A stretch of 64,000 nt of DNA from an uncultured Gemmatimonadales bacterium (GCA_963798085.1 CAWCRS010000008.1:480001-544000); one strand, 5' to 3'. Shown: positions 17,663 to 32,600, numbered from the stretch's first letter. Program-made: the numbers.

Positions 17663-20600
17663 CTGGAGCGGGCCGCGATTCTGTCGTCCGGCGGCGAAGA
17701 GATCAGCGTCAATGCGCTGCCTCGCCGCATCACTTCGCCGGATCCTGCGCCGCTCGTGTCCGAGCGCGCGCCCACGAATCCCACGCTCGAGCTGGTCGAG
17801 CGCGCGTACATTCTGTGGGTGCTCGAGGCCGAGGGAGGCAACAAGGCAAAGGCTGCCGAAGTGCTGGGCATCGACCCGTCCACACTCTATCGCAAACTCA
17901 ACCGTTACGGGGTCGCGGGTGCGGCATGACCGACGATTTCGAGAACCACTCGCGCATCAGGAGGGACCCTACCTCAATGCGGCTTAGCGTCGTCATGCCC
18001 GTCTACAACGAAGCGCCCACCGTGCAATACTCGATTGCGCGCGTGCGCTCCGTTCCCCTTTCCATCGAACTGGTGTGCATCGACGATGCCTCCACCGATG
18101 GCACACGCGCGGTCCTCGAGCAGCTGCACCAGGACGGTGTGATCGACGTGCTGCTGCTGCAGGAACAGAATCAGGGGAAGGGTGCGGCCGTGCGGCGAGG
18201 CATCCAGGCGGCCACCGGCGATGTGATCGTGATCCAGGACGCTGACCTCGAATACGATCCTTTCGAGCTGCCTCGCCTGCTCGATCCCATTCTCGATGGC
18301 CGCGCGGATGCCGTCCTGGGCAGTCGCTTCCTGGGTGGCGTGCACCGCGTCCTCTACTTCTGGCACCGTCTGGGCAACGGACTGCTGACGCTGCTGTCCA
18401 ACATGCTCACGGACCTGAACGTCACGGACATGGAGACGTGCTACAAGATGGTGCGCGCGGATCTCATGAAGAGTCTGCCGCTGACGGCGGATCGCTTCGG
18501 CATCGAGCCGGAGCTGACCGCACGGCTGGCGCAGTCCCGCGCCCGCATCTACGAAGTGCCCATCAGCTATTCGGGCCGCACCTATGCCGAGGGCAAGAAG
18601 ATCGGCTGGCGTGACGGCGTCGCCGCCTTCTGGCACATCGTGCGCTTCAATCTTTCGGGACCGCGCGCGCCCCTGTACAAGCCGGTACGCAGCCTGACGC
18701 CGCCGCAGCCCGGCGTGATCGCGGACCAGCCACCCGTGGTGCGCAATGCCACGCGAGGCGTGACCGGCCCGTGAACGCCAGGCTGGGGGGCATGGAAGCC
18801 CCTGCCGCCTCGAGCCGACGCACAGGCATGATGCCATGGCGGGGGTTGCGTGCGGCGCTGGGCGCAGTGCTGGCGCTGCTCGCGGTGCTCCCTCTCCATT
18901 CTCTGCTGCAGCGGCCCGAAACCGGACTGGCCGGCGCCGCGACCGCAGCCATGACACAGGCGTACACCTCGTTCGTCTGGGCCGGCTTCCTGTTCCTGCT
19001 GATTCCCGCATTCCTGGCTTGCAGGCTGTTAGAGCCGGCCGCGATGGAGCGCGCAGCCGGGCGCGCGGGCCGGTTGCTGACCGCATTGCCGGCTGGTGCG
19101 TTCGCGACACTGGCCGCGCTCATCGCCTTCGCCGCCGCGGCCGGCTTCGGCGCCCTTGTGCTGCACGGGCAGCCCAACCTGATCGATGCCATGGCGCAGC
19201 TGCTGCAGGCCCGGTACCTGGCGGCCGGGCACTGGTCCGGTCCGGGGCCGGCGCTGGGCGCGTTCTGGCAGACGCAGCAGAGCCTGTTCACACCGCACGG
19301 CTGGGTGTCGCAGTACCCGCCCGGGCACATCGTGCTGCTCACGCTGGGGCTGCGGCTGCACGCGGTGTGGGCGGTGGGCCCGTTCATGCTGGCGCTGACC
19401 GTGCTGTTCGCAACGCTCGCGGCCGGACGCCTGCTGCCGGAGCGCCCCGCGGTGGCTCGCCTGGGCGGATTGCTGGTGGCGGTCTCGCCGTTCCTGATCG
19501 CGCACGCCGGTGCCTACATGAACCACACCACGGCGGCGGCCTTCGGCGCGTTCGCAGTATGGAGCGCATTGCGCGCGGCGCGCGGCAAATGGCTGTGGGC
19601 CGTGGCGGCCGGCGCCGGTGTGGGCGCGCAGTTCGCTACCCGGCCGCTCTCGGGCGTGACGCTGGGCATCACCCTGGCCGTGTGGCTGGGGCTGTCCCAT
19701 CATGATGCAGGCGACGACACTGCGTCCGCCTCCTCTTCTAACTCCGTGTCAGTACTCGCCGGGCTGGCGCTGGGCGCACTGCCGCTGCTGCTGGCCGTGG
19801 CGTTCTACAACCTGCACTTCTTCGGCTCGCCCACGCGCTTCGGCTACGACGCGGCGCTGGGGCCGGCCGGCGGGCTGGGCTTCGGCACAGACCCGTGGGG
19901 CAACACGTACGGGCCGGCCCAGGCGCTGGCCTACACATCAGCCGAGCTGAGCACGCTCGGGCTCTTCCTGCTCGAGACGCCCCTGCCGCTCGTGGCCGTG
20001 ATCGGCCTGTTCCTGATGTTCGCGCCGCGGCTCTCGCGCAATGAGCGCCTGCTCGTTGCGTGGGCGACACTGCCGGTGGCGGCGCAGCTGCTCTACTGGC
20101 ATCACGGCCTCTTCATGGGACCGCGCATGCTGAACGAAGTGGCGCCCGCGTGGTGTCTGCTGGCGGCGCTGGCGGGTGTGACGCTCGTCGAACGGCTGCC
20201 CGAGCGCATGGCGGCGGCCACGCAGTACTCGCCGCGCGTGCTGGGCGCGAGTCTGCTGGGCGGCGCCCTGGTCGCCGGCGTGGCCGCGCTCTCGCCGTTG
20301 CGACTGGTCAGCTACGCGCAGCACCCGGCCGCGCTCGACGCGGTCAGAGGGGCATTGTCGCCGGCACTGGTGTTCGTGCATGGCGGCTGGACCTCCCGCC
20401 TGTCCATGCGCCTCGCGGCCGCGGGCATGCGCCTCGATTCCGTGGAGAGCGCACTGCGCCAGAACCCGACGTGCGCGGTGCAGCAGTACGCCGACGCGCG
20501 CGAGCAGGGCGGCGCGCTGCCTGCCCTCGATTTCGTGCCGCGCGCGTTCCCCCTGCCGCAGTCGGTCGAGATTTCACCCGGCAACCGCATACGCATTGGC

Positions 20601-29600: not shown

Positions 29601-32600
29601 GGCGGCGTCAATGCGGCGCCTAACCTGCCGTTTCTGCGGCATGGACACCGTTTCCTCTCCGCCCTGCGCGCGTGGCCCGAGTACGCGCGGCTGCTGGTAT
29701 TTCCGATCGACCTGGTGTCGGACTACTCGCCCGGTGTAGTGCTGCCGGTCGAGCACCTGTCGCCCATGGTGCTGCTGGGCGCACTCTTGCTCGCGGGCAC
29801 TCTGGCGCTGTTTCTGGCGACGCCCTGGGTACGCCGCGCCGGCCTGCCCGCCGCCTGGTTCTTCATCTCCGTGTTCCCGGTTTCCAACCTGCTGCTGCCC
29901 ATCGGCGTACTGCTCGCCGAACGCATTCTCTATCTCCCCAGCGTAGCGCTCTCCATGGCGCTGGCCTTTGCGTGGGATCATTACCGTGCGCGTTTCACAG
30001 CGCGCGATCTGCGTCTGGCGGTGGGCGCCTTGTCGGCGGCGCTGCTGGCATTGGGGGTGCGCTCCGTGCTGCGCAACCCGGACTGGAAGGACACGGATGC
30101 AGTGTGGGACGCCATCGTGCGGGACCACCCCGAGTCGTATCGCTCGCAGTGGGTGAACGGATATCGCATGGCGCAGCGCGGCAACAGACAGCTGGCGCGC
30201 GGCTACTTCGAGATCGCCTACCGACTCTGGCCCGATGATGAAGTGCTGCTCGACAACCTCGCCGGCGTCTACGTCGAGCTGCGCGAGTACGAGCGCGCCG
30301 TTCCCGTGCTGGAGCACGCGCGCGCCATCAGCGACATCATTGATAACACCGAGCTATTGCTGGCCTGCGCGTACCTGGGCACGCAGCGCTGGGCCGACGC
30401 GCTGGACGCCAGCATCCGCGCCGATCGCCTGAACGGCGATCGCGCCACCGTCTTCGCGCTCCGCGCGCAGGCCTACGAAGGGGAAGTGCGCTACGACTGG
30501 GCCGCCGGCGCATGGCGAGTCGCGGCCCGCCAGCGCCACGGCAACATCCCCACGTTCTGGCTGATGCTGGCGCGTGACCTCGCACGCACCCAGCACCCGA
30601 CCGCGGCCCTCGCCGCCATCGACACGGCGCGCAGTCTGATTCCGGCCACCGGCCGCCAGCTGCAGGCGACCGCGGACTCGCTGGCCGGCGCGGTCGCCGC
30701 GCACTGCTTCTCCACTACTGCCCCAACCATCCATTCCGGCGCCCCGCCGGCTGCCGCACCATGTGCCGACCCGCTCGCTGCCTGGCCGATCGTCGTGCCG
30801 TGGACTGCGCAGGAAGTTGCCAACCCCTTGCAAAATGCCACTAAGTAACGGGCTGTTGGGGCTGGCGGTGCCGTTGCTGAGATTCACGTAAAATCAGGGT
30901 GTTCAAGTAGTTACGGTAGTCCGACCAGGGCGGGACCGGGTGGGAATACCTCTTGCTCCATCCGCCTCTCGGGAAAAGCTGCCTGCCGATCCCGATCCGT
31001 AAAACTCTTTCTGGAGGACGTCGGTATGAAGCTGCGCAAAGGTTTCACCCTGATCGAGCTGCTGATTGTGATCGTGATCATCGGCATTCTGGCTGCGATC
31101 GCGATTCCGAAGTTCAGCAAGACTCGTGAGAAGGCCTATTTCAAGGCCATGATGTCCGACCTGCGCAATCTCGAGGCGCAGCAGGAGATCTACTACTCGA
31201 TCCCTGCCAACAACTACCAGTACGCCGCGAACGTGACGGACCTGGTGGACTTCGCACCTTCGAGCGGCGTAAGCACCAACATCGCCGCGTCGGGCACCAC
31301 CGGCTGGTCGGCGACGGCGACGCATGCCGCGCTTGCGGCCGCGACGCAGAACTGCGCGATCTACACGGGTTCGGCGGCGGCAGTCGGTCCGGCAACGACG
31401 CCGGGAATCGTGACCTGCACGGGTGAGTAATTTCGCCGGTGCTTGATCGTGGGGCGGCCCACTGGGCCGCCCCCGGGTCAAACTAGGCGAATGCTGAGGT
31501 GATGATGCCAAGGCGAAGCGGGTTTACTCTGATCGAGATTCTGATCGTGCTCGTGATCATTGCGATCCTGGCAACGATCGGTGTCAACCGATTCTGGGCA
31601 GCGAAGGACCGCAGCCTGTACGCGAGTATTCAGAGCGATCTGAGAAACATGGGCGCAGAACAGGAGATCTATTACGAGAAGAACCTGAGCTACGCCGCGG
31701 CAGTAACGGATCTGGTGGATTTCAGGAGCAGCCAGGGCGTGACGATCAACATCACATACGCGGCAGCCAATGGCTGGGCAGCGAATGCGACACACACGTC
31801 ACTGGGCGGCAAGCAGTGTGGCTATTACACAGGGAACGCGCCAGCGGCGTCGGGCGCACCGGCGACCGTGAACGGCGTGGTCGACTGCAACTGATCCGAA
31901 CGCACACCACCGCGGCCTTTCCGTGAGCGCAAGCCATGGGAGGGCCGCGGTTCCTCTTTCCTGAAGGCTCGCCCGCTGAGGGCGGGCCTTGCTGTCTTGC
32001 CCCGTGACGCACGCGCGTCCCATAATCGCTGCTCGCTTCCATAACCCACGCGGTCATGGCCGAACTGCAGACACTGCGACGTGAACTCATTCTGGCGCTG
32101 GCGGTGGTATTCGCCTTCGCTCTTCTGGTGTTCGCGCTTGGTGTGTTCCTGTGGCCGTCGCCGGAGGGTCTGGGTGAGCGGGCCGTCTACAACGGAGTTC
32201 TGGTGCTGGTCGTGGTTGCCATTTTCGCGCTCATCAGTCATATCGTGATCCAGCGGAGCGTGGTGCGGCCCATCCGCGAGATGGTGGCGGAGATCGAGAC
32301 GATTGCCGGCGGGCAGTACGATCGGCGCCTGGCGGAAGGCGACACGCGCGAGCTGTCACGGCTCGCCGCCGCGGTCAATCACATGGCCGAACGCCTCATC
32401 ACGGACCAGGCGCAGCTGGCCGCCAACATCCAGTCGCTGGACGGCACAAACCGTCTGTTGACCGAGGCGAGGGACGCCATGGTGCGCGCCGAAAAGATGG
32501 CGTCCGTGGGCCGGCTCAGCGCCGGCATTGCGCACGAAGTGGGCAATCCGCTGGGCGCGATCCTGGGGTATCTCGGACTGCTGAGCCGCAGCGCCAATGC

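Follow-up and report, generated by a model that had tools for sequence, protein, structure and literature searches.

Among the systems closest to the locus described here is that of the pilin-modifying enzyme TfpW of Pa5196/PA7 (Kus et al. 2008 is cited for it). In a later source, TfpW of Pseudomonas aeruginosa group IV (Pa5196/PA7) is described as a GT-C pilin D-arabinofuranosyltransferase of about 650 aa, with 11 predicted TM segments, a DDX motif in periplasmic loop 1, a YX6PFX7P motif in loop 4 and a C-terminal periplasmic TPR region; its gene adjoins pilA, and Thr64/Thr66 of the pilin are glycosylated (10.1101/2020.04.19.049825). TfpO/PglL O-oligosaccharyltransferases (O-antigen ligase, Wzy_C type) likewise O-glycosylate pilin from a gene beside pilA, but they have another fold and transfer en bloc from a lipid pyrophosphate. 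ArnC/ArnT combine a GT2 synthase with a periplasmic GT-C, in the absence of a TPR tail or a pilin link, and we take the Ppm1/Pmt two-step system to be of the same kind, a GT2 synthase with a periplasmic enzyme of GT-C fold that has neither TPR tail nor pilin link. The acceptor of the animal TMTC1-4 protein O-mannosyltransferases (CAZy GT105) is cadherin, and full-length prokaryotic TMTC homologues are already noted in PMC7801869. An earlier note on the DNA studied here reported literature without a TMTC-pilin link. For the word TMTC this stands, since open-access literature listings held no paper on TMTC and pilin, TMTC and TfpW, or Gemmatimonadota pilin glycosylation; however, TfpW, a pilin enzyme that combines GT-C and TPR, had been missed. 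The novelty of a pilin-associated TMTC type was therefore overstated, because prokaryotic TMTC homologues are in print and TfpW is a precedent known from experiment.

We analysed a 64-kb window (64,000 nt, the whole stretch of DNA under study) from an uncultured Gemmatimonadales bacterium, in which two TMTC-like genes, A and B, precede two pilin genes (Table 1).

Table 1. Features of the pil locus; positions are counted from the first nucleotide of the window.
Feature	Position	Strand	Evidence
pilS-like sensor kinase and pilR-like sigma-54 activator, operon head	14708..17929	+	6TM_PilS, HisKA, HATPase; Response_reg, Sigma54_activat
DPM1-like GT2, probable polyprenyl-phosphate sugar synthase (donor)	17977..18774	+	Glycos_transf_2 E 1.6e-34
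GT-C1, second membrane GT-C, no TPR match	18771..20883	+	L049 orthologue matches PMT_2 above cutoff
GT-C2, PMT_2/ArnT-like membrane glycosyltransferase	20885..22576	+	PMT_2 E 1.4e-6, above cutoff; DE motif, residue 55
SAM-dependent methyltransferase 1	22560..23294	+	Methyltransf_11 E 1.3e-22
ArnC-like GT2, probable second polyprenyl-phosphate sugar synthase	23296..24285	+	PRK10714 E 1.4e-55, below cutoff
SAM methyltransferase 2, Trm112-domain	24282..25295	+	Trm112p, Methyltransf_11/25
AsnB-family glutamine amidotransferase	25304..27232	+	Asn_synthase E 2e-99; TIGR01536 above, TIGR03108 below cutoff
TMTC-like gene A (g04888), 547 aa, GT-C membrane domain and short TPR tail	27229..28872	+	DD, WRP, RAE, KE, DY, ERxxY
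TMTC-like gene B (g04889), 659 aa, GT-C membrane domain and longer TPR tail	28869..30848	+	DD33-34, YRP, QAE, KE185-186, DY285-286, ER351-352
sigma-54-type promoter-like site, 5' of pilA1	30863..30878	+	motif match
pilA1, probable major type IVa pilin	31026..31430	+	N_methyl; typeIV_PilA_Myxo E 2e-14, below cutoff
pilA2, second pilin, 46-49% identity with pilA1	31499..31894	+	Thr at same loop offset as pilA1
second two-component pair, minor pilins, pilM-pilQ	32056..43663	+	kinase frameshifted near 32880

The DPM1-like GT2 has an alternative start at 17926, overlapping the pilR stop. GT-C1 gave no match to a TMTC profile and carries a frameshift near 20663 in this assembly, where orthologues run on in another frame, and the AsnB-family protein is probably a sugar amidation enzyme. 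A gap of 177 nt separates the gene B stop from the pilA1 start; pilA2 comes next, and both pilins carry a prepilin N-methylation motif. A sigma-54-type motif precedes the first pilin gene at 48/98 loci, against 0/98 in-gene controls and 1.8 expected from shuffles, while in a scan of the whole window matches were not above chance.

Genes A and B are intact plus-strand ORFs, full length relative to same-genus orthologues, and gene A forms its own subclade of orthologues. Compared pairwise with fish TMTC4, they scored E 2e-23 (A) and 1e-28 (B) at 24-26% identity, and the 420-aa membrane part of gene B retrieved fish TMTC4 from a 5.8-billion-sequence database with E 3e-18 and 96% coverage. Pfam gave PMT_2, DUF1736 and TPR matches, all sub-cutoff (TMTC_DUF1736, the M5 DW loop, reached 14-17 bits vs a cutoff of 27), although TPR matches are frequent in homologues; NCBIfam had no fitting model. 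The two genes are thus TMTC homologues lacking a proper Pfam match, as the earlier note had it, and by sequence comparison the homology to animal TMTCs is real and covers the whole membrane domain. The family comprises 99,278 clusters at E<1e-10, many prokaryotic homologues, several close ones among them, bear the JGI label 'protein O-mannosyl-transferase', and a plasmid search gave no match.

The gene B model (pLDDT 90.8) has 11 long membrane-region helices, with TM segments assigned from the TMTC4 alignment, followed by helical hairpins at 409-610. In a wide search its fold matched AglB (Z 19.8), STT3B (19.2), Pmt4 (18.9), Pmt2 (18.7), ALG12 (18.6) and ArnT (17.8), over 335-362 aligned residues at rmsd 4-5.8, while Foldseek with the whole model returned TPR proteins only. 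PDB sequence searches with gene A, gene B and a TMTC profile found no GT-C and no TMTC-family chain. The modelled fold, together with the acidic motif in the first external loop, indicates that both proteins belong to the GT-C superfamily; fold scores did not separate protein-acceptor from lipid-acceptor GT-Cs.

As in animal TMTCs, genes A and B show full-length homology to the family, the 11-TM plus TPR design, M1 (DD), the YRP of M2, M4 (KE), an acidic M5 and M7 (ERxxY), and over 73 clade members the catalytic residues are kept in 73 (DD), 73 (K), 72 (E) and 73 (ER). They differ in that SHKS of the M2 motif SHKSYRP is replaced in A, in B and across the clade, M3 reads RxE (A) or QxE (B) in place of RxD (clade R 26/73, Q 40/73), DW of M5 is DY in most clade members, T/Q after KE is not kept, M6 retains one proline, the TPRs are fewer, and their clade is separate from animal TMTCs in the tree. 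Judged by its published description, TfpW shares with genes A and B an 11-TM GT-C domain, a DDX motif, C-terminal TPRs, a position beside pilin and, as proposed here, a lipid-phosphate monosaccharide donor and a Ser/Thr pilin acceptor; the loop-4 motif agrees in its Tyr/Pro spacing. The loop-4 spacing Y-x6-P-x8-P occurs in gene A, gene B and 32/73 clade members (0.44 in shuffles), and the two prolines in 73/73 and 71/73; the F that follows the first P in TfpW is found in 0/32 motif matches. Moreover, tfpW lies downstream of pilA, whereas TMTC-like genes lie upstream of it as part of the pilSR operon, and there are often 2-4 paralogues.

TMTC-like genes occur in 39/60 genomes of the window's family, close to the 19/30 given earlier. 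Their placement next to a pilin gene in most loci was likewise borne out: among 40 family regions, 30 carry a pilin no more than 1 kb away, 1 has it at 1.3 kb with an intervening gene, 8 stop at a contig edge and 1 has none. In 46 regions from other Gemmatimonadota families, 28 had a pilin within 1 kb and 14 had none near. A sample not picked by closeness to the window gave a pilin link in 12/18 Gemmatimonadota loci vs 3/60 others, and with equal 1.5-kb flanks the figures were 39/58 vs 0/30 and 3/30; every count includes kin, which are not independent. The pilin link extends across Gemmatimonadota and is rare outside the phylum. Pilin-linked Gemmatimonadota copies come from one clade (36/38 rows, SH-aLRT 99), and because they do, the counts may reflect a single ancient event. 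It could then be argued that the adjacency is inherited gene order, or that the proteins are non-catalytic pilus accessory factors, TPR scaffolds akin to PilF/PilW: the TPR part of gene B resembles PilW/PilF (Z about 13.5), and the gene is missing from about half of Gemmatimonadota (98/200), which still keep the pil locus. We consider this very improbable, given that the catalytic residues are invariant, that gene presence tracks the donor synthase, and that adjacency outlasts inversion of the TMTC gene (7 loci) and loss of flanking genes (GT2-TMTC-pilA is retained with pilSR gone in L119, L121 and L122), while the intervening glycosyl genes turn over. In G102 and G179, the TMTC copy found is away from a pil locus that is itself TMTC-less. 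In one TMTC-less relative (G040, L104) an O-antigen-ligase (Wzy_C) ORF occupies the slot where two genus mates have GT2 and TMTC, an arrangement that parallels the TfpO/TfpW alternatives; TfpO/PglL is unrelated to genes A and B.

The presence of a DPM1-like synthase, claimed previously, was corroborated by the best PDB match of the first GT2, the Pyrococcus-type DPM synthase 5mlz (E 3.3e-18). A DPM-like GT2 is found in 29/34 loci with TMTC and pilin vs 6/41 TMTC-less pilin loci; 3 of these 6 show no other GT-C. The sugar could instead go to a glycan or lipid, with A and B acting as ArnT-like enzymes on lipid A or a surface polymer, or lengthening a glycan that GT-C1 or GT-C2 had begun on pilin (one paralogue may extend even if the other initiates). 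ArnT and ALG12 fall within about 2 Z units of the best fold match, an ArnC-like GT2 sits in the locus, Wzx-type flippases, GT1/GT2 and RmlD genes occur at several loci, and in the TMTC-less L161, L166 and L178 the DPM-like gene is paired with other GT-Cs. Nevertheless, five loci have a minimal pilR-GT2-TMTC-pilin cassette, and L055, L056 and L060 have a single TMTC-like gene with no other GT-C detected from GT2 to pilin; the characterised homologues nearest in sequence are transferases that act on protein, and a TPR tail fits a protein acceptor. Transfer to glycan or lipid is accordingly quite unlikely, although GT-C1 and GT-C2 could be initiators.

As to the sugar, TfpW draws on the DprE1/DprE2 D-Araf pathway, while here the donor enzyme would be the DPM1-like GT2; DprE1/DprE2 and a GtrA-like protein were not in the locus, GtrA was not found in the 90%-complete genome, and no flippase for the donor sugar was identified. 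A genome scan for donor pathways returned two weak MannoseP_isomer matches and three Wzy_C genes outside the locus. The M2 SHKS and M3 RxD residues of TMTCs are modelled as mannose contacts in PMC7801869. Because SHKS is replaced, transfer of mannose is unsupported and looks doubtful. Of the earlier proposal that these genes encode O-mannosyltransferases for pilin, the pilin glycosyltransferase part survives, on kept motifs, phylum-wide adjacency that withstands inversion and rearrangement, and co-occurrence with the DPM1-like gene; the mannose part does not, given the SHKS replacement and a clade apart from animal TMTCs.

In the pilA1 model (pLDDT 94) a helix spans 3-52, strands begin at 76, and Thr65 falls in the alpha-beta loop. 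In raw counts for TMTC vs TMTC-less loci, after removal of 9 rows (frameshifted, minor-type or ambiguous) and with columns chosen after looking, Ser/Thr stands at conserved Tyr +3 in 23/56 vs 4/34 pilins and at +5 in 22/56 vs 4/34; a short alpha-beta loop is found in 43/56 vs 12/34. Overall pilin Ser/Thr content at genus level is 0.221 vs 0.214 (p 0.49), and a comparison over 5 independent pairs gave no significance. The enrichment is a lead only, because the columns were chosen post hoc, the genus-level p is 0.49 and the pairs are not significant. Pilin and TMTC distances co-diverge (partial r 0.29-0.34 vs 0.20 in the control) and copy numbers correlate (rho 0.30, 54 loci) too weakly to be of use.

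The lack of a clear relation between pilin composition and the presence of TMTC would also suit enzymes whose main O-glycosylation targets lie elsewhere in the envelope, among minor pilins, the pilus machinery or Ig-like surface proteins, with the major pilin at most one of several acceptors. Off-pilin copies nest among pilin-linked ones (pilin-only monophyly rejected, AU p 1e-8) and arose separately at least 4-5 times within the clade; three, from one genus, have a Big_2/Big_1 Ig-like protein two genes away, another comes after a PilC-type gene, and another stands before a PilB-type ATPase gene. Ig-like folds are targets of TMTCs in animals (PMC11292533). The family as a whole has other acceptors, because it is very large and mostly not near pilins. 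For the clade of genes A and B, however, nearly every neighbour is the first pilin, the one driven by sigma-54, and GT2, TMTC and pilA travel together (L119, L121, L122), so that mainly non-pilin acceptors seem unlikely here.

The computed homology, fold, intact motifs, synteny and co-occurrence together point to genes A and B as probably active GT-C enzymes of TMTC type that O-glycosylate pilin in the periplasm, with a polyprenyl-phosphate sugar as donor. The DPM1-like GT2 would make a polyprenyl-phosphate monosaccharide in the cytoplasm, which would be flipped across the inner membrane; at the periplasmic face the TMTC-like enzyme would use its DD motif to transfer the sugar onto Ser/Thr of the membrane-anchored pilin, whose head the periplasmic TPR tail may select, with Thr65 of the pilA1 alpha-beta loop as the first candidate site. 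The core would be GT2, a TMTC-like gene and pilA, and the intervening genes (two GT-Cs, the ArnC-like GT2, two methyltransferases and the amidotransferase), which vary between genomes, probably extend or decorate the glycan. By analogy with P. aeruginosa, the benefit is likely masking of the pilus from phage. A bolder, distinctly speculative reading, to which we give a rather low probability, is a true bacterial GT105 with a defined acceptor: a three-gene unit would add a single hexose to a pilin whose folded head the TPRs recognise, TfpW would be a divergent member, cadherin and pilin enzymes would be one family, and glycan and a lengthened alpha-beta loop would be alternative phage shields in Gemmatimonadota.

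A GT-C plus TPR design acting on pilin is already known from TfpW, which limits the surprise. If pilin glycosylation by these genes is true, TMTC-type enzymes would join TfpO and TfpW as a third pilin-modifying module open to exchange, with relevance to phage defence (10.1101/150227), and in Gemmatimonadota, a phylum abundant in soil, about half of the members would glycosylate their pili in this way. One clade of a bacterial family that is very large and uncharacterised would thereby gain a first acceptor. In humans, lissencephaly results from TMTC3 variants, and the minimal three-gene cassette would be a small bacterial system for how TMTC-type enzymes pick their protein via TPRs.

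The pilin locus reads, on the + strand, pilS, pilR, a DPM1-like GT2 (a probable polyprenyl-phosphate sugar synthase), two further membrane GT-Cs, a methyltransferase, an ArnC-like GT2, a Trm112-domain methyltransferase, the amidotransferase AsnB, genes A and B (encoding TMTC-like GT-C plus TPR proteins of 547 and 659 aa), pilA1 and pilA2, with a second two-component pair, minor pilins and pilM-Q downstream. Close named homologues belong to Gemmatimonadota, several of them to Longimicrobiales. Stop/start overlaps at GT2/GT-C1, asnB/A and A/B suggest that the glycosyl genes form a single operon behind pilSR. 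In 48 of 98 loci a sigma-54-type motif precedes the first pilin gene, vs. 0/98 in-gene controls and 1.8 in shuffles; the pilin behind such a site would be the major one, under PilR control. Frameshifts, probably assembly indels, interrupt GT-C1 and the second sensor kinase but neither A nor B, and topA looks split too. A third pilin-like sequence lies elsewhere in the genome (G000:C3:1026813-1027139; 36% to pilA1).

Features of the pilin locus and its surroundings, in coordinates of the window, G000:C8:480001-544000
Feature	Position	Strand
DPM1-like GT2	17977-18774	+
Frameshift in GT-C1	20663	+
Gene A	27229-28872	+
Gene B	28869-30848	+
Sigma-54-type site, 5′ of pilA1	30863-30878	+
Frameshift in second sensor kinase	32880	+
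topA	47347-49135	

Both proteins align pairwise to fish TMTC4 (A, E 2e-23; B, E 1e-28), and the membrane portion of B matches it at E 3e-18 with 96% coverage; the DUF1736 match is below cutoff. The predicted model of B (pLDDT 90.8, pTM 0.88) has the TMTC layout, and its fold matches, at Z 17.8-19.8, are AglB, STT3B, Pmt4, Pmt2, ALG12 and ArnT. When 73 members of the Gemmatimonadota clade of TMTC-like proteins were aligned against the animal TMTC motifs of PMC7801869 (Table 4), the RP of motif M2 was kept, as were DD and ER in 73/73, K and E of KE in 73 and 72, and an acidic residue at M3 in 73 and at M5 in 69. As departures, SHKS is replaced, M3 has Q in 40 members and R in 26, DY stands where DW is expected, and the residues that PMC7801869 models as mannose contacts differ. 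Since the catalytic motifs are kept across the clade, A, B and their relatives are very probably active enzymes.

Full-length prokaryotic TMTC homologues are already on record in PMC7801869, and the wider family is very large, with 99,278 clusters at E<1e-10. One clade holds 36 of the 38 sampled Gemmatimonadota rows (SH-aLRT 99; 94/93 in a careful 30-row tree, and a weak 66 in a 208-row FastTree), and animal TMTCs fall outside it. A and B fall into separate orthologue groups; the two may differ in the pilin, the site or the step they act on. Single genomes can carry many TMTC-like matches: a 3.7-Mb Tepidisphaeraceae genome has 16, and one genome each of Anaeromyxobacter and Binatia has 7-8.

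TMTC-like matches were present in 39/60 family genomes and 102/200 phylum genomes; a profile search of 80 genomes previously negative or weakly positive added five matches, none full length. Among 40 family regions a pilin lay within 1 kb in 30 and at 1.3 kb in one, eight reached a contig edge and one had none. In 46 regions of other families, hand-picked and with second copies included, the pilin was within 1 kb in 28 and at 2.5-3.5 kb in three, with none in 14 and an edge in one. Three loci from unpublished genomes (L032, L035 and L052, from G046, G016 and G019) are included in the family counts, alignments and trees; unpublished G015, G236, G154 and G114 entered search tallies only, and no claim depends solely on unpublished genomes. 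In a named GTDB sample of 78 loci, collected using a mixed alignment whose first sequence was fish TMTC4, a pilin lay within 1 kb in 12/18 Gemmatimonadota loci vs. 3/60 others. With equal 1.5-kb flanks, pilins were present in 39/58 loci from Gemmatimonadota, 0/30 from the phylum of an Anaeromyxobacter genome, and 3/30, representing two distinct loci, from that of the Binatia genome. Pilin linkage thus characterizes the Gemmatimonadota clade and a small number of other clades rather than the TMTC-like family as a whole. One Binatia locus (L240:6237-13946) alternates pilin-TMTC-pilin-TMTC-TMTC-pilin, with Thr-rich pilins; its TMTCs lie outside the Gemmatimonadota clade, which suggests separate recruitment.

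The TMTC-pilin association is real and conserved, and probably functional. We regard inherited gene order or a scaffold role as a very improbable explanation: pilin adjacency is retained despite an inverted TMTC gene in seven loci, though of one family and perhaps reflecting few events, and three loci (L119, L121, L122) lack pilSR and retain GT2-TMTC-pilA, with 9-38 nt from TMTC stop to pilin motif. Five loci have a minimal pilR-GT2-TMTC-pilin arrangement. A DPM-like orthologue occurs in 29/34 TMTC-plus-pilin loci showing pilR vs. 6/41 TMTC-less pilin loci (Fisher p 5e-10, overstated by kinship); three of these six have another GT-C, and in three none was seen. G040, a genome with no TMTC match, carries a frameshifted O-antigen-ligase (Wzy_C) ORF, above cutoff, between pilR and pilA (L104:3439-4851), in the slot where its genus mates G004 and G055 have GT2 plus TMTC, one case of slot exchange. 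Other genes also occupy the pilR-pilA interval. One, in inverted orientation, encodes a spermidine-synthase-domain protein of 1030 aa (L170:3018-6107 and eight related loci, mostly of one genus) and occurs with the TMTC gene present or absent, and another, TPR-less GT-C family with an xDDxxY motif and weak PMT_2 similarity (L126:11532-13079 and 12 related ORFs) is also found in TMTC-less loci L178 and L191.

Off-pilin copies are nested inside the clade, monophyly of the pilin-linked copies being opposed (AU p 1e-8), and their neighbours are mixed. In three loci of one genus (L141, L143, L145) a Big_2/Big_1 Ig-like plus LVIVD protein lies two genes from the off-pilin copy; in L141 a DPM-like GT2 (53%) comes after this copy as well. 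Animal TMTCs are described as acting on Ig-like folds, and GT105 on Ig-like domains (PMC11292533, PMC6801728). In G102 and G179 the TMTC copy found lies apart from the pil locus, itself TMTC-less. Off-pilin copies in L128 and L196 lie near PilC/T2SSF and PilB/T2SSE genes, and some off-pilin copies are therefore still in pilus-related loci. Action on other protein acceptors is unlikely in our judgment, and a glycan or lipid acceptor quite unlikely.

The alpha-beta loop is short in 43/56 pilins of TMTC loci vs. 12/34 of TMTC-less loci, and Ser/Thr near positions 63 and 65 is commoner in the former (9/98 rows dropped). As the columns were picked after looking, and the Ser/Thr and loop-length signal fails phylogenetic control, this is a lead only. 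Both window pilins carry a Thr five residues past a conserved Tyr; the pilA1 model places it within the loop, close to Thr64/Thr66, described as TfpW sites in Pseudomonas pilin. In TMTC-less loci (e.g., L164, L172, L183) the first pilin often has a loop 6-15 residues longer than in TMTC loci, a difference not significant on independent pairs; longer loops are possibly an alternative to glycan shielding.

We favor, as reasonably likely, periplasmic glycosylation of pilin Ser/Thr: the GT2 would load a sugar onto undecaprenyl phosphate, the sugar-lipid would be flipped (GtrA was not found in the 90%-complete source genome), the TMTC-like enzymes would move the sugar to pilin, and the other GT-Cs, methyltransferases and amidotransferase would elaborate the glycan. 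Our open-access literature search found no paper linking TMTC with pilin or with TfpW, and none on Gemmatimonadota pilin glycosylation. TfpW of Pseudomonas aeruginosa (AAM52060.1) is described as a 646-aa, 11-TM GT-C that carries a DDX motif plus a TPR domain on the periplasmic side, whose gene adjoins pilA and which O-glycosylates pilin (10.1101/2020.04.19.049825). The spacing of its YX6PFX7P motif recurs, without the F, in 32/73 clade members (shuffles 0.44). That A/B-type enzymes would work like TfpW, as far as its published description goes, is well supported. Pilin glycosylation is reported to protect against phage (10.1101/150227; PMC11841053). The locus probably represents TfpW-style glycosylation of pilin in a variant form that uses TMTC-type enzymes.
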